A stretch of DNA of 33,436 nt from Nitrosotalea sp. (lineage in GTDB: Archaea > Halobacteriota > Syntropharchaeia > Alkanophagales > Methanospirareceae): positions 1 through 33,436 of the forward strand of contig DYFG01000006.1 in assembly GCA_020725315.1 (NCBI GenBank), read 5' to 3'. Both the position numbers and the translations under genes were made by a program. The notes beneath the pieces are model-generated. The model searched no databases and was not told the origin of the DNA. It was given only the letters and a program-made list of their open reading frames with translations. This document shows positions 22-24,020 of the stretch, piece by piece (within the stretch, counting starts at the first letter, position 1; each line of letters begins with the position of its first letter).

Positions 22-160
22 AAATCCTAAGCACCAAATTAAGCCCTTACAGGGTAAACCCTTACAGGGTTTTCGGGGTCAACGGGGCAGAGCCCCGTTA
101 TGCGGGGTCGTGGGGCAGAGCCCCACATGTTTAGGATTTCGGATTTAGTGTTTGGGATTT
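22..160 (-). repeat. Modular GC-hairpin repeat element (REP/MITE-like), copy 1, inverted relative to copy 2
   Basis: The reverse complement of 1484..1622 matches 22..160 with 2 mismatches in 139 nt by manual alignment. Contains hairpin modules CGGGGCAGAGCCCCG (83..97), GTGGGGCAGAGCCCCAC (110..126) and two CCCTTACAGGG units, flanked by AT-rich AAATCC/GGATTT arms. Confidence 0.9.
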
Positions 161-1483: not shown

Positions 1484-1700
1484 AAATCCTAAACTCTAAA
1501 TCCGAAATCCTAAACATGTGGGGCTCTGCCCCACGACCCCGCATAACGGGGCTCTGCCCCGTTGACCCCGAAAACCCTGTAAGGGTTTACCCTGTAAGGG
1601 CTTAATTTGGTGCTTAGGATTTGGAATTTTTGAGGTTAAAACCGGAAAAGAAATCTTAAGTTATCATGTTAAAACCGGAAATGAATTTTGTCAGGGGTTT
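1484..1700 (+). repeat. Modular GC-hairpin repeat element, copy 2, with extended AT-rich flank
   Basis: 1484..1622 is the inverted partner of 22..160. Modules are GTGGGGCTCTGCCCCAC (1518..1534), CGGGGCTCTGCCCCG (1547..1561) and two CCCTGTAAGGG units. The flank 1601..about 1700, including GTTAAAACCGGAAA at 1635..1648 and 1668..1681, is homologous to the reverse complement of 23873..23963. Confidence 0.85.
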
Positions 1701-1730: not shown

Positions 1731-2092
1731 TTATGTTCTCACAAAATTGCGGCCAAACCAGAAGCTATTGTCACCAACGTCAACAGTGATGATCGCTGTG
1801 GGGTCTATTGTCTCGCGCAATACCTTCATGATAAACGGAACGCGTAACGGTGCAGCCTCAGCGTCAGCCTCTTTCTCAAGCTGAGCATGCCATTTTTCCC
1901 TCTCCTTTTTCACCGCCTCAACTACCTGTGGAGTCGCTTGTTCTTTTACCCTCTCCAGAATTGTACTTTGTCGTGCTTGCGTATCGCATCCACTATACCC
2001 AGGCATGTCGTGCCTGGAAGCCCAAAAATGTATTCCACTCCTCACGCAGCGAGTTGATCCACAATAACCTCTGATACCGTTCTCTCTTGCAT
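1731..2092 (-). pseudogene. Remnant of a thiamine-pyrophosphate enzyme (acetolactate synthase / pyruvate oxidase family)
   Basis: The N-terminal piece MQERTVSEVIVDQLAA*GVEYIFGLPGTTCLGIVDAIRKHDKVQF carries an in-frame TGA. A shifted frame continues with a C-terminal-domain piece, ...APLRVPFIMKVLRETIDPTAIITVDVGDNSFWFGRNF. The central roughly 300 aa and the C-terminus expected for this family are missing. Confidence 0.7.
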
Positions 2093-2243: not shown

Positions 2244-3368
2244 ATGGAAATGAGAAAGGATTTCAGCGATTTGGAAAGTGAAGTGGTAGAAAAAGGGAAC
2301 TGTGCACTCTGCGGTGGCTGCGTTGCTACCTGCAGGTTGCTCGATTACGGGTATCTCAGTATGGACTTTTCTGAGTGGGGACCAGTGATAGGAGAAGGGC
2401 CGCAGTATTCGCCGGCTTGTGGATCATGCTTTTATTCTACGGGAAGACCAGTGCTAAGAGAGGGGCCGCAGTGCCCGCCGACTTGTGGGTACTGCTACTA
2501 TCAATGCCCACGGGTCGAGGAACCGGTGTTAAAGGAACGACTGGAAGAGCTTTATGAAGTTGTTAGTAAAGATGAGGAGATAAGGAGAATGTGCCACAAT
2601 GGTGGTGCGCTTCTTTCGTTACTCGTTTCTGCACTTGACGATGCGATCGTAGAGGGCTGTATAACGGTTACTGATAAGGGAGGATTAATGCCTGAGGTGC
2701 GTGTTGCGATGAATAAATCAAGTTTGATGGAGGGTGCGGGTGGCACCTATGGGTCAGCAGCAGCACTGACTGGTGTAGCAGATGCTATTTTGAACTACGG
2801 TCTCTGGAGCGTTGCTCTGGTAGGAACGCCGTGTCAGATGGCGGGATATGAGAAGATGCTCGATGTTGGGCGTGGTACACACAATGCCCATAATTTCTCG
2901 TCCAGTGTGAGATTACGAATAGCTCTGTTCTGTCCGGGAGCTTATTCGTATGATAAATTAGTGAAGGAGTATCTTGAACGCGAGCATGGTATACTTAGTG
3001 ATGAGATAACAAAGTTAGAGATTCGGGAAGATGGTCTCCACGTATATGCTGGTGATAAGGAGTTGTTACATGCGGGAATGAACGAAATAGAGGATTATAA
3101 GCGAGAGGGATGTAAGATCTGCGCAGATTTCACCGGGCTGTTTTCAGACATAAGTGTTGGACATATCGGCTCACCTGCCGGGAAGTCAACGGTTATAATT
3201 CATACTGATTCTGGGAAAGAGGTATTTGAGCGTGCTTTGGAATGGGGCTATATAGAAGCGAAACTGATAAACAAAGCTGGTGCGGATTTGATACACCGAG
3301 TGAAGCAAGAGAAGCGAGAAGCAGGGCTGGTAGAGAAGGCGCGGAGGAAGAAGGTAAGGGGGCGGTAG
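2244..3368 (+). CDS. Coenzyme F420 hydrogenase/dehydrogenase beta-subunit family protein (FrhB/FdhB-like) with N-terminal Fe-S motifs
   Basis: Contains CALCGGCVATC and CGYCYYQCP cysteine motifs, followed by an FrhB-type body (GGALLSLLV..., VALVGTPCQM, LFCPG, CKICADFTG..DISVGHIG). TAG stop, followed one codon later by TAA. Confidence 0.75.
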   Translation: MEMRKDFSDLESEVVEKGNCALCGGCVATCRLLDYGYLSMDFSEWGPVIGEGPQYSPACGSCFYSTGRPVLREGPQCPPTCGYCYYQCPRVEEPVLKERLEELYEVVSKDEEIRRMCHNGGALLSLLVSALDDAIVEGCITVTDKGGLMPEVRVAMNKSSLMEGAGGTYGSAAALTGVADAILNYGLWSVALVGTPCQMAGYEKMLDVGRGTHNAHNFSSSVRLRIALFCPGAYSYDKLVKEYLEREHGILSDEITKLEIREDGLHVYAGDKELLHAGMNEIEDYKREGCKICADFTGLFSDISVGHIGSPAGKSTVIIHTDSGKEVFERALEWGYIEAKLINKAGADLIHRVKQEKREAGLVEKARRKKVRGR

Positions 3369-3405
3369 AGGTAAACTTTCCTCGTGCTTATCCAAAACTG
3401 ATACG

Positions 3406-3721
3406 ATCCTCTCAAGGCTGACTCGACATTTCAGAGGGTTAAAAAGCCCGACAACGCCTACTGTCTTTGAAGCATTGGTTGACTCCATAATTGAACAGCA
3501 AATCGCGCTCAATGTGGCACATAGCATAGAAAGAAACGTGGTAAAAACGTTTGGTGATACGTCAATGGTAGATGGCAACCTTTATTACGCATTCCCAATA
3601 CCGCAGCAATTGGCTTCTGCAACTACAGAACAACTCCGCATCTGCGGGTTGAGTGCGCGAAAAGCGGAGTAGGGAATTGGAGTTTGGACAGCGGAACTCA
3701 CCATGCTTCGGGGAATAAGCC
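3406..3721 (+). pseudogene. Remnant of an HhH-GPD DNA glycosylase (AlkA / 3-methyladenine glycosylase II-like)
   Basis: The translation reads FRGLKSPTTPTVFEALVDSIIEQQIALNVAHSIERNVVKTFGD...YAFPIPQQLASATTEQLRICGLSARKAE, then an in-frame TAG, then GIGVWTAELTMLRG (HhH motif). The segment normally between these motifs and both termini are absent. It runs into the convergent ABCE1 3' end. Confidence 0.65.
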
Positions 3722-5593
3722 TCACAAATAATAATACCGCCCCGTCTCCTTCTGCTCACGGTCCTTTGCCGACCCGATCTTATTGATCCGTGGTCGCAGT
3801 GTGGTTTCATCACGCCTGAAGGTTATACCCAACTCCTTCAAGAACAAATTCATGCCCTCTCGCATCTCAAAGCAACCTTTTATCTCGCCTCGCACCCCGG
3901 GTTCACCGTTGAACACCATCAACCGATCACTTAACAAATCGATCAAGTAAATGTCATGGTCAACGATCAGCATTGATACCTCTCTTCGTTCCGCATACCG
4001 CCTCAAGGTCTTTATCAATCGTACCTTCTGCTCCACATCGAGATGCGCAGACGGCTCATCCAGCATATAGAGTGATGCATCCTTGCAGAGACACGCTGCT
4101 ATCGCTACGCTCTGTAATTCGCCACCACTGAGCTCTTTTATCTCCTTTTCCTCCAGCTCTGGTATCCCTAATGGATTGAGCACCTCAATAACATCAGCTT
4201 CACGTAATCCTCCGTTGAGTGAAGAGATGAAGTCCTTCACCTTCATATCCAGCTCGCCCTTGTGGGGCTCTGCCCCCCGCAAGCCCTGTAAGGGCTTTAT
4301 ATACTGCGGCTTGTAAGAAAGGGTAATATCACGTGAGTGTGGGGCTCCGCCCCTACCACCCCGCAAGCCCTGTAAGGGCTCACCCGCAAGCCCTGTAAGG
4401 GCTTTGCTCCCTGCTGTCGGCTCTGTCTCGCCTGCCAATACTTTCACAAATGTGCTTTTACCAGTAGCATTTCTCCCGACTATACCCAATACTTCCCCCA
4501 GCGCTACACTGCCTGGCTTCGCCTCTAATAAAAATCCATCTCCGCCATATCTCTTCTCAAAACCATCATACTCGATGAAAACATCTCGTTCTTCCTGTCT
4601 CTCCCTCGGTGGATGAGCGTTGAATTCTATCGGTTTATCTCTTATCCGAACGTTCTCCGCGTGCAAAAATCCACTCAAATATTCGTTTATCCCTCTATTC
4701 GTGCTCTTTGGCAGGGTAACCACACCATAGCCACCGGGCTCGCCATAGAGGAGATGCAGATAATCAGCAAGCATATCCAGGATGGCGAGGTCGTGCTCCA
4801 CCACGACCACTGCCTTCCCCGCCAAAACCTTCCTTATCCCCTTTGCCACCTGCACCCGCTGATAAATGTCCAGATACGGTGTTATCTCATCTAAGAAGTA
4901 AAAATCAGCATCCCGTATCATACACGCGATTACCGCGACTCTTTGCAGTTCGCCACCACTGAGCGCCTTTATATCCGTCTTCATCGCCTCTTCGAGCTCG
5001 AAAGCCTTTATCAGCCGTTTTGATTCACCGGTCTCATTCGTACTTTCCAGCAACTCGTACGTGGTGCCATCGAAGAATGTTGGTATTGCATCTACATATT
5101 GCGGCTTATACGCCACCCTAATCTTCCCTTTTGACAGTTTATCAAAGTAATTCTGTAACTCAGACCCCGAATATCTCTTTATTATCTCATACCAGCTCAC
5201 CTCCGCATGTACATTGCCAAGGTTCGGCACTTGCAACCCTGCTAATATCTTAATCGCCGTGCTCTTCCCGATCCCATTCTCTCCTAACAACCCAGATATC
5301 CTCCCCGCTCGTGGAATAGGCATTCCATAAAGGACAAACCCGTTTTCACCATATCGGTGCGCCTCTTCACCCTTCAGCTCCTCAGGTAAGCCTATTATAG
5401 AGATGGCGGAGAATGGGCATTTTTTTATGCAGATCCCGCATCCCTCACACAGATCCTCTGATATTATCGGCTTCCCATCGCTACCCACAACGACCGTCTC
5501 TGCTCCTGTCTGCACCATCGGACAGTATTTTATGCATTCAGATGCACATTTCCTCGGCTGGCACTTGTCCTTCTTTAAGGTCGCTATTCGCAT
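3722..5593 (-). CDS. abcE1: ABCE1 / RNase L inhibitor (ribosome recycling ATPase), carrying repeat-derived in-frame insertions
   Basis: N-terminal 4Fe-4S domain (CxxCxxCxxxCP twice). Two ABC NBDs with Walker A (GENGIGKST, GRNATGKST), LSGGELQ signatures (twice) and the C-terminal GMNLFLKELGITFRRD...RPRINK...REQKETGRYYY. 623 aa. Confidence 0.95.
   Translation of the reverse strand: MRIATLKKDKCQPRKCASECIKYCPMVQTGAETVVVGSDGKPIISEDLCEGCGICIKKCPFSAISIIGLPEELKGEEAHRYGENGFVLYGMPIPRAGRISGLLGENGIGKSTAIKILAGLQVPNLGNVHAEVSWYEIIKRYSGSELQNYFDKLSKGKIRVAYKPQYVDAIPTFFDGTTYELLESTNETGESKRLIKAFELEEAMKTDIKALSGGELQRVAVIACMIRDADFYFLDEITPYLDIYQRVQVAKGIRKVLAGKAVVVVEHDLAILDMLADYLHLLYGEPGGYGVVTLPKSTNRGINEYLSGFLHAENVRIRDKPIEFNAHPPRERQEERDVFIEYDGFEKRYGGDGFLLEAKPGSVALGEVLGIVGRNATGKSTFVKVLAGETEPTAGSKALTGLAGEPLQGLRGGRGGAPHSRDITLSYKPQYIKPLQGLRGAEPHKGELDMKVKDFISSLNGGLREADVIEVLNPLGIPELEEKEIKELSGGELQSVAIAACLCKDASLYMLDEPSAHLDVEQKVRLIKTLRRYAERREVSMLIVDHDIYLIDLLSDRLMVFNGEPGVRGEIKGCFEMREGMNLFLKELGITFRRDETTLRPRINKIGSAKDREQKETGRYYYL
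4262..4404 (+). repeat. Hairpin repeat modules embedded in the ABCE1 coding sequence
   Basis: Modules are GTGGGGCTCTGCCCC (4262..4276), AAGCCCTGTAAGGGCTT (4281..4297), GTGGGGCTCCGCCCC (4339..4353), AAGCCCTGTAAGGGCT (4365..4380) and AAGCCCTGTAAGGGCTT (4388..4404). Module types, order and linkers (CCCCGC) match the intergenic copies. Confidence 0.9.
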
Positions 5594-6540: not shown

Positions 6541-6559
6541 GGGATAAAAATATAAAAAA
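6541..6559 (-). terminator. Oligo-T tract immediately after the tRNA-Glu 3' end
   Basis: The minus strand reads TTTTTTATATTTTTATCCC directly after the discriminator base. Archaeal RNA polymerase terminates at oligo-T. Confidence 0.5.
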
Positions 6560-6634
6560 TGCTCCGGTCGGGATTTGAACCCGAGTCCTTGGCTCGAAAG
6601 GCCGAGATGATTGGCCGAGCTACACTACCGGAGC
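6560..6634 (-). tRNA. tRNA-Glu (anticodon UUC)
   Basis: The minus strand reads GCTCCGGTAGTGTAGCTCGGCCAATCATCTCGGCCTTTCGAGCCAAGGACTCGGGTTCAAATCCCGACCGGAGCA. It has a 7-bp acceptor stem, anticodon loop CTTTCGA and T-arm CTCGG/TTCAAAT/CCGAC... It closely resembles archaeal tRNA-Glu. CCA is not encoded. Confidence 0.9.
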
Positions 6635-6648
6635 ATAACCTCTCTTAT

Positions 6649-6750
6649 GTGGGGCTCTGCCCGTGCCCCCGCGTGTGGAGCTCTGCCCACGACCCCGCAA
6701 TCGCGGGCTCTGCCCGCGTTCCCGCGAGCCTGAAAGGCTCAGTAAGGGCT
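6649..6750 (+). repeat. Cluster of hairpin repeat modules between rpl12 and tRNA-Glu
   Basis: Contains a degenerate GTGGGGCTCTGCCCGTG, GTGGAGCTCTGCCCAC (6675..6690, one bulge), GCGGGCTCTGCCCGC (6703..6717) and GAGCCTGAAAGGCTC (6726..6740). Linkers GACCCCGC/GTTCCCGC are shared with the other copies. Confidence 0.85.
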
Positions 6751-23915: not shown

Positions 23916-24020
23916 CCACAAAAATCCAAATCCTAAGCACCAAATTAAGCCCTTACAGGGCTTGTGGGGTCGTGGGCAGAGCCCACGGAAACAAATCCAA
24001 ATATCTAAAATCAAATCAAA
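23873..24020 (-). repeat. Hairpin repeat element, copy 3 (shortened core)
   Basis: AAATCCTAAGCACCAAATTAAGCCCTTACAGGG is identical to 22..54. Modules are AAGCCCTTACAGGGCTT (23947..23963) and GTGGGCAGAGCCCAC (23972..23986). The flank 23873..23925 is homologous to the reverse complement of 1620..1700. Confidence 0.85.

Follow-up and report, generated by a model that had tools for sequence, protein, structure and literature searches.

The ABCE1 (RLI) gene of the archaeal contig DYFG01000006.1 (positions 1-33,436 of the forward strand, hereafter called the window) carries two in-frame blocks of palindromic DNA in the region encoding its second nucleotide-binding domain (NBD2). We consider it probable (about 85%) that these blocks are copies of a 42-nt twin-hairpin repeat, dispersed in the anaerobic methanotrophic archaea of group 1 (ANME-1), which is read through and kept in permissive loops of the host protein in the manner of the Rickettsia palindromic elements (RPEs).

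Two in-frame copies of the repeat in ABCE1

On the coding strand, the unit is made of hairpin B (AAGCCCTTACAGGGCTT), an 8-nt linker (GCGGGGTC) and hairpin A (GTGGGGCRGAGCCCCAC), amounting to 42 nt. The boundaries of the two blocks were set by codon alignment with the DNA of seven orthologues, and the features of the gene are as follows:

3722..5593, minus strand: ABCE1 (RLI) coding sequence, 623 aa, uninterrupted open reading frame (ORF) with the iron-sulfur (FeS) domain, both nucleotide-binding domains and all motifs
4339..4404, minus strand: site-1 insertion, 66 nt, B-B-A, read as (K)ALTGLAGEPLQGLRGGRGGAPH
4388..4404, minus strand: hairpin B, first copy of site 1, AAGCCCTTACAGGGCTT, 7-bp stem and 3-nt loop
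4365-4381 and 4281-4297, minus strand: further copies of hairpin B
4339..4353, minus strand: hairpin A core GGGGCGGAGCCCC with outer pairs at site 1; the site-2 copy of A is at 4262-4276
4298..4338, minus strand: native segment between the insertions, 41 nt, encoding ..SRDITLSYKPQYI (beta strand and Q-loop glutamine)
4262..4297, minus strand: site-2 insertion, 36 nt, B-A with a linker short by 6 nt, read as KPLQGLRGAEPH

In NBD2, site 1 separates the Walker A helix from the strand preceding the Q-loop. Codon alignment gives AGCA^TATCG (Ser-Ile-Ser) as the empty sequence of this site in L001, L004 and L008, and the comparison with L001 (Kmv05) by BLASTN shows a net gap of 66 nt; the right junction of L005 (CCCCAC|TATCA) is unaltered. 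Site 2 is located immediately past SYKPQYI. Its empty sequence is TATATA^AAAGGC (Tyr-Ile / Lys-Gly), and a complete 42-nt unit is found there in L001 and L003. The 41 nt lying between the two insertions are colinear with those of insertion-free orthologues in the codon alignment. A covariance model of the unit matches site 2 at 4261-4298 (48 bits). The motif GCAAGCCCTGTAAGGGC is present at 4279, 4363 and 4386 and also at 23949 (chance expectation 0.00), and the motif GTGGGGCTCYGCCCC at 4262 and 4339 as well as in intergenic DNA at 84/112, 1518/1546 and 6649/6675 (chance expectation 0.05).

A preliminary description of this DNA had placed two in-frame blocks in NBD2, one before and one right after the Q-loop strand, and the codon alignment confirms this arrangement. 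Of the span that it proposed (4258-4404), the end is exact and the start lies 4 nt too far left, the boundary being at 4262. It had also stated that the blocks are read through without stops, which is the case, the peptides KALTGLAGEPLQGLRGGRGGAPHS and PLQGLRGAEPHKG flanking LSYKPQYIK in the ORF, and that they share modules, order and CCCCGC linker with intergenic copies, which is equally correct (A-CCCCGC-B on the plus strand, as at 1517-1605).

The net insertion lengths observed across orthologues (36, 42, 66 and 84 nt) are all multiples of three. Only one of the unit's six reading frames, a reverse one, contains a stop (TAA), the other five being open. Within ABCE1, the same unit is read in two frames, as KALTGLAGSWGGAPQ in the site-1 insertion and as KPLQGLRGRGAEPH in that of site 2; therefore, it is the DNA and not the peptide that is shared. 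The insert-derived peptides predicted from the translation of ABCE1 are ALTGLAGEPLQGLR, GGAPHSR, PLQGLR and GAEPHK.

The intactness of the host ORF, also asserted in the preliminary description, is clear: besides its lack of interruption, it encodes the cysteines of the FeS domain together with the two Walker A/B sets, the two LSGGELQ signatures and the two H-loops, and its Pfam domains (PF04068, PF00037 and two PF00005) are those of the ABCE1/RLI family. Its closest database relatives are proteins of Methanophagales (ANME-1) named "ribosome biogenesis/translation initiation ATPase RLI", and the protein of Pyrococcus abyssi (PDB 3BK7) aligns with it over its full length (E=1e-175). Identity with the nearest orthologue reaches 90%, without any excess of change outside the inserts. 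An inositol-monophosphatase/FBPase gene abuts ABCE1 in the window, as it does in L001, L003, L004, L006, L008, L108 and L110.

Most ANME-1 ABCE1 proteins have 587-590 aa and neither block, and both blocks are also absent from the ABCE1 of Syntropharchaeia, Archaeoglobus and Methanosarcina. Among the closer relatives, the two sites are found in the following states:

Window: site 1, 66 nt; site 2, 36 nt
Kmv05 (L001): site 1 empty; site 2, 42 nt
Yes46-13 (L032): site 1, 84 nt (B-B-A-A); site 2 empty
L003: site 1, 42 nt; site 2, 42 nt
L004: site 1 empty; site 2 empty

The ABCE1 genes of the window, Kmv05 and Yes46-13 share 94-95% nucleotide identity despite these different states, and L003 and L004 share 94.4%, one being filled at both sites and the other empty at both. 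The site-2 copy of L003 is base for base the family consensus AAGCCCTTACAGGGCTTGCGGGGTCGTGGGGCGGAGCCCCAC, the core of which is also matched by its copy at site 1. By comparison, the site-1 copies of L006 and L007 (~80% identical) are decayed, their stems being broken and the frame kept, and in L109 both sites are reduced to short remnants. Filled states occur in a scattered manner over the neighbor-joining tree of ABCE1. The existence of homologues devoid of the blocks, for which the preliminary description had cited Sulfolobus and Pyrococcus, was verified for the majority of ANME-1 and for 3BK7, which shows a clean gap at site 1 and only a small gap inside a poorly aligned stretch at site 2. 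Unrelated segments of equal length in distant orthologues were also looked for at the two sites, where the orthologues hold either nothing or the same repeat.

A putative deletion footprint in P0038 and P0029 (GKKAFD) was dropped, since one substitution is enough to turn KIA into KKA; the remnants of P0043 (AAG TCT TTA CAG AGC; GCC GCA CAA TCA) are more convincing. It should also be mentioned that some other ANME-1 ABCE1 (P0062, P0067, P0052 and P0065) carry unrelated low-complexity insertions in other loops (GAGAGAGAGTGAG; HLSGTVGDSGVGGDRGDRGDRGVRGVRG; DDSDEDDSDEDDS; EAAAKNERAGNES). The ABCE1 of this order appears unusually tolerant of several kinds of loop insertion.

An AlphaFold2 model built from a 25-sequence alignment resembles the solved ABCE1 structures (TM score of 0.92 to 5yv5 and 1yqt and of 0.80 to 3bk7). 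Its per-residue confidence score (pLDDT) is below 50 at residues 402-420 (site 1) and 433-446 (site 2), the only other such segment outside the N-terminal FeS region being 313-316. The strand separating the inserts is predicted at residues 425-428 (DSSP), with a block-mean pLDDT of 79 for residues 421-430. The same loops show natural length variation in P0062, P0064 and P0066 (site 1) and in P0052 and P0057 (site 2). In ABCE1, the one host that was modeled, both inserts are predicted to form loops compatible with the host fold. Comparison of the two halves of the protein indicates that site 1 is the NBD2 counterpart of the much longer Walker A-to-Q-loop segment of NBD1, which we take to be the helix-loop-helix motif of ABCE1.

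The repeat family in ANME-1 and in the window

The family was searched in one genome per species with the pattern CCCTTACAGGG-N(3-30)-GGGGCNGAGCCCC. At least 99 genomic stretches match it, nearly all of them labeled ANME-1, Methanophagales or broader archaeal taxa (matches in Ruminococcaceae and Streptomyces were set aside as chance). Among 104 archaeal copies, 76 possess the 42-nt core; 31 copies are identical to one sequence, the commonest variant, and 15 to a second, AAGCCCTTACAGGGCTTGCGGGGTCGTGGGGCGGAGCCCCAC. The flanks vary among copies except for a T at position -1 (98/104, 94%) and an A at position +1 (95/104, 91%).

Copies were considered as intragenic when located in a stop-free span with at least 60 codons on either side. 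The preliminary description had suggested a scan for modules inside other coding sequences, and the phenomenon extends far beyond ABCE1: 36 of the 104 copies (35%) are intragenic, compared to 47% of random 42-nt windows taken from the same loci. Therefore, the depletion from coding sequence is mild. All five open frames are used across genes and, at unique sites, about 23 copies are in sense orientation versus eight in antisense. Pfam domains were detected in 27 of the 30 ORFs tested, most domain envelopes spanning the insert. The host genes include those of leucyl-tRNA synthetase, arginyl-tRNA synthetase, TruA, TruD, TiaS, the RNA cyclase RtcA, chorismate synthase, prephenate dehydratase, GMP synthase, ArgC, an amino-acid kinase, Nnr (NAD(P)HX repair), RmlD and UDP-GlcNAc 2-epimerase. 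Filled/empty pairs were also found at two sites in ArgC, at two sites in GMP synthase and in Nnr, and the RtcA gene of one genome carries an additional B module. One Nnr (NAD(P)HX epimerase/dehydratase) gene of ANME-1-THS (L030 2193-3938) contains at least three element-derived segments, including variant modules (GGGCAGAGCCCG); in its orthologue from another metagenome-assembled genome (L031 3695-5164), a single shorter copy occupies the first site and the second one is vacant. A recurrent subfamily is nested in an AT-rich inverted context, CTTTTCTWT-[unit]-ATAAGAAA (for example in L016, L020, L034, L052, L053, L058 and L086), so that the unit is often the center of a larger palindrome, which may represent a preferred target or, alternatively, a more extensive composite element. 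Among the nested copies, some are nevertheless intragenic and antisense (RmlD, TruD, a CDP-alcohol transferase and an FAD oxidase).

When folded as DNA, either strand of the unit forms two 7-bp hairpins, with energies of -13.8 and -14.4 kcal/mol (z = -3.4 and -4.6). Its stems covary, with compensatory pairs both in A (T-A 99 / C-G 20 / A-T 4 and G-C 86 / A-T 27) and in B (G-C 97 / A-T 29). Variant stems include GT..AC, AAC..GTT, AT..AT and TA..TA for A, and AAG..CTT versus AAA..TTT for B. Since the stems are kept by paired changes, something reads the hairpins as structures. A mobilizing enzyme is the usual candidate, and a host function would leave the same signature.

The window contains five repeat loci, ABCE1 and four intergenic ones:

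40..127, plus strand: intergenic composite B-B-A-A with AT-rich ends (covariance model, 61.9 and 34.2 bits)
1517..1605, minus strand: intergenic composite B-B-A-A, inverted relative to the 40-127 copy (covariance model)
6652..6741, minus strand: degenerate intergenic copies with variant stems (CGCGGGC/GCCCGCG and others), 27.5 and 20.7 bits, just upstream of tRNA-Glu
23946..23987, plus strand: single intergenic B-A unit (covariance model, 54.8 bits)

The covariance model did not detect any further significant copy in the other coding sequences of the window, ABCE1 being therefore the only one that carries the unit. A search of the window with Rfam retrieved two tRNAs only; thus, the unit does not correspond to a curated RNA family.

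Some of these loci have particular surroundings. The degenerate copies (6649-6745) start at most ~15 nt from the 5' end of tRNA-Glu (6559-6635, minus strand), where its promoter is expected, and their variant stems are still paired (CGCGGGC/GCCCGCG and GTGGAGC/GCCCAC). A hicBA toxin-antitoxin pair confirmed by Pfam (HicA 892-1089 and HicB 1082-1318, both on the minus strand) is bracketed by two inverted composite repeats of ~125 bp (1-145 and 1500-1620), i.e. B-B-A-A with AT-rich ends of the AAATCCTAA type; the whole looks like a repeat-bounded cassette. The hicAB operons have been described as variable hotspots co-localized with frhB in ANME-1 (PMC13385816, 2026), and frhB (2244-3368) adjoins the hicBA region in the window. 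A thiamine-pyrophosphate enzyme pseudogene (1734-2092, minus strand), of which only residues 1-45 and 326-393 of the 531-aa L008 orthologue are left, ends where the hicBA cassette starts; this gene is intact in L008 and in Kmv05 (L001). Directly downstream of ABCE1, a 90-aa fragment of HhH-GPD base-excision glycosylase (3400-3672, plus strand, Pfam E=1e-6) occupies the place of a full 303-aa glycosylase gene in L004 and similar relatives, and is probably another gene remnant.

Maintenance, mobility and rival explanations

The unit dispersed in ANME-1 genomes would land in genes and, given a length multiple of three and five open frames that make it stop-poor, a landed copy would usually be read as a peptide of 12-28 residues rich in Gly, Pro, Arg and Leu. 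Selection would retain only the copies located in permissive surface loops, in ABCE1 those following the Walker A helix of NBD2 and the Q-loop strand. The alignments show that copies are cleanly gained and/or lost and that the number of modules (B-A, B-B-A or B-B-A-A) shifts rapidly in evolution, probably through slippage or through recombination of modules with one another. As copies age, substitutions and deletions accumulate in them and the frame is kept. Judging from sequence, the peptides are likely translated and tolerated rather than functional, and the unit itself may be a selfish element that spreads by means of an enzyme acting in trans.

We found no transposase, terminal inverted repeat or target-site duplication, and mobility is consequently deduced from the distribution of the copies. 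The ABCE1 junctions AGCA^TATCG and TATATA^AAAGGC show no duplication, and those of other genes no consistent one; in the filled/empty pairs of ArgC, GMP synthase and Nnr, the junctions are inconsistent and the net gains are 42, 45 and 48 nt. Insertion into a T^A dinucleotide was rejected, as it predicts a wrong frame and wrong junctions at both ABCE1 sites, and so was a 3-nt "ATA" duplication, which fits a single GMP synthase site. In 610 kb of ANME-1 loci chosen for their short units, phmmer with an IS200 TnpA query detected no IS200-like (Y1) transposase among 3285 ORFs, and no B...A pairs more than 80 nt apart were found, both results being a weak test. A scan of viral contigs for the unit gave 0 matches. 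A more ambitious proposal is that of an active archaeal element that would insert into and excise from a double-digit number of essential genes, leaving neither duplication nor footprint and using the same A/T-rich, loop-encoding sites again, by means of an enzyme recognizing hairpins. We regard this proposal as possible but rather doubtful. If true, such an element would be a permanent source of variation in the surface loops of ANME-1 proteins.

Several observations weigh against our interpretation of the blocks as tolerated copies of a mobile repeat. Besides the absence of recognizable mobility signatures, the same two ABCE1 sites are filled in lineages that are only ~80% identical, which requires that site-specific insertion has recurred or else that the insertion is old and has been precisely lost many times. 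Both ABCE1 copies are preceded by an A, unlike the 94% of copies that have a T at -1. The translation of the inserts is deduced from the ORF rather than observed. Furthermore, perfect consensus copies beside diverged flanks, the covariation of the stems and the coding-strand bias would also fit a host role. According to this last explanation, the modules would be kept because they act as RNA or DNA structures pausing translation or transcription, as protein-binding sites, or as loops modulating ABCE1; the better folding of the mRNA segment compared to shuffled sequences (z = -2.95) goes in the same direction. However, sister lineages at 94% identity lack the modules, copies decay and get deleted, the five frames yield unrelated peptides, about two thirds of the copies lie outside long ORFs, the insertion loops vary freely in other lineages, and a mobilizing enzyme recognizing hairpins would conserve the stems equally well. 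A host function is therefore an unlikely explanation.

The three other explanations that we considered concern the reality of the gene or of its product, and each of them is far less probable still. Short-read assemblers can be suspected of having joined ABCE1 to dispersed repeats: L110 (4300-4395) ends inside the site-2 element, and in L111 (1370-1590) the site-2 element is joined to the site-1 element, with a second, out-of-frame copy of the Q-loop strand, and the contig then enters an enolase-superfamily gene. The frame break and the unrelated gene that follows make L111 more likely a chimeric contig than a genuine duplication of the Q-loop strand; since the two insertions form direct repeats on either side of an essential strand, at a distance of 41 nt, the Q-loop would be lost or doubled if they truly recombined. 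In the window, however, the intact ORF is colinear on either side, NCBI, JGI/IMG and Logan all contain the identical 623-aa protein, and a 621/623-identical (99.7%) protein with both blocks is encoded by another contig. The same sites are filled by the same repeat, with lineage-specific substitutions, in five other assemblies from different samples (NCBI, ENA, JGI and Logan), and all net lengths are multiples of three. A mis-assembly, which the preliminary description had mentioned as a danger for its proposal, is thus contradicted and is the least probable explanation of all.

The gene could also be a decaying paralogue whose role is fulfilled by a clean copy elsewhere, a second copy being conceivable for a genome considered here through a 33-kb window, and this point likewise counts against our interpretation. 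However, the conserved neighborhood (inositol-monophosphatase/FBPase gene), the integrity of the FeS cysteine, Walker A/B, signature and H-loop motifs, and the 90% identity with the nearest orthologue without excess change outside the inserts render such decay very improbable. Lastly, the inserts might be removed from the mRNA, in an intron-like manner, or from the protein before ABCE1 matures. Archaea splice some mRNAs at bulge-helix-bulge motifs, and the transcript would contain strong local hairpins. However, every variant, be it a 6-nt deletion, a 24-nt module duplication or a decayed copy with broken stems, is in frame and free of stops, although removal would make the keeping of the frame needless; moreover, the predicted fold has no bulge-helix-bulge geometry, and intein motifs are absent. 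Excision has, in our opinion, only a very slight chance of being correct.

Comparison with known repeat families

RPEs are palindromes dispersed in intergenic regions and in frame in many housekeeping genes of Rickettsia (Ogata et al. 2000, Science 290:347; 2002, Genome Res 12:808; as summarized in PMC10969869), and similar repeats are also present in Wolbachia. The resemblance to RPEs put forward in the preliminary description is supported, modules of intergenic type being found in frame in NBD2 and read as loops. Like RPEs, the ANME-1 unit is dispersed and palindromic and is located both between genes and, in frame, in unrelated housekeeping genes without loss of the ORF; the peptide it encodes is predicted to suit the fold of the host protein, and neither repeat shows an evident transposase, terminal inverted repeat or target-site duplication. 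Conversely, RPEs have ~100-150 bp and are restricted to Rickettsia, whereas the ANME-1 unit has 42 nt, is archaeal, and is made of two separate 7-bp hairpins and a linker, with a variable number of modules and five usable frames. On the basis of its length, it is distinct from RPE-1 to RPE-10 and is another family of the same class. It displays the features of protein-coding palindromic repeats (RPE-like), i.e. multicopy dispersal, in-frame genic copies and sites predicted to be compatible with the fold of the host protein.

Such fusions have a precedent in archaea. Some MJRE repeats of Methanocaldococcus jannaschii are fused into protein genes (Suyama, Lathe & Bork 2005, FEBS Lett 579:5281, as cited in PMC2229807 and PMC2996958), and the view of the preliminary description that no archaeal case was known is consequently incorrect. 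Both are archaeal palindromic families, mainly intergenic, some copies of which are fused into genes without breaking them. They differ, as far as descriptions can be compared, in that about a third of the sampled ANME-1 copies are intragenic, many are identical to the consensus, and states differ between sequences with 94% identity. Only three copies of MJRE2 reportedly lie within coding regions, and the MJRE families are said to be old and diverged.

The unit also shares short hairpins, compensatory stems and the lack of target-site duplication with repetitive extragenic palindromic (REP) sequences of REPIN-RAYT systems and with palindrome-associated elements (PATE) of the IS200/IS605 family. 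Clean presence/absence is moreover expected from the seamless single-strand HUH (Y1) transposases of IS200/IS605. However, REPs are extragenic by definition, unlike the ANME-1 unit with its 35% of intragenic copies, and the ends of IS200/IS605 elements carry similar hairpins, whereas the sequences of B and A are different and no linked enzyme was found in the loci searched. Classical MITEs (miniature transposable elements with inverted repeats) such as Correia/NEMIS, ERIC and Nezha (PMC2229807, PMC10969869) are likewise small, non-autonomous and sometimes intragenic with translated fusions. However, they are bounded by terminal inverted repeats, show TA-type duplications and have a parent insertion sequence, none of which was found at the ABCE1 junctions of the 42-nt unit; AT-rich inverted ends are present only on the larger intergenic composites, the ends of the unit itself being two different hairpins.

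We found no published report of such repeats for ANME-1, and neither PMC9894754 nor PMC13385816 mentions hairpins, palindromes or MITEs. The latter, a survey of structural variants in ANME-1 (2026), discarded variants of 50 bp or less, a cutoff below which the 42-nt unit falls. The repeat also has practical consequences, since it breaks or mis-joins short-read assemblies (L110 and L111) and inflates the apparent divergence of proteins; filled and empty alleles at 94-95% identity could provide strain markers and a handle on the mechanism of mobilization. ANME-1, which are uncultured and central to marine methane removal, tolerate repeat DNA in core genes of translation and biosynthesis at a rate near that of random placement. 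They offer a much richer archaeal case than M. jannaschii of how selfish DNA becomes protein and of which positions accept insertions. Overall, the ANME-1 unit is a new repeat family within a known class, in which it is notable for being small and modular, for the large share of its copies that are intragenic, for occurring in essential translation genes and for turning over fast.

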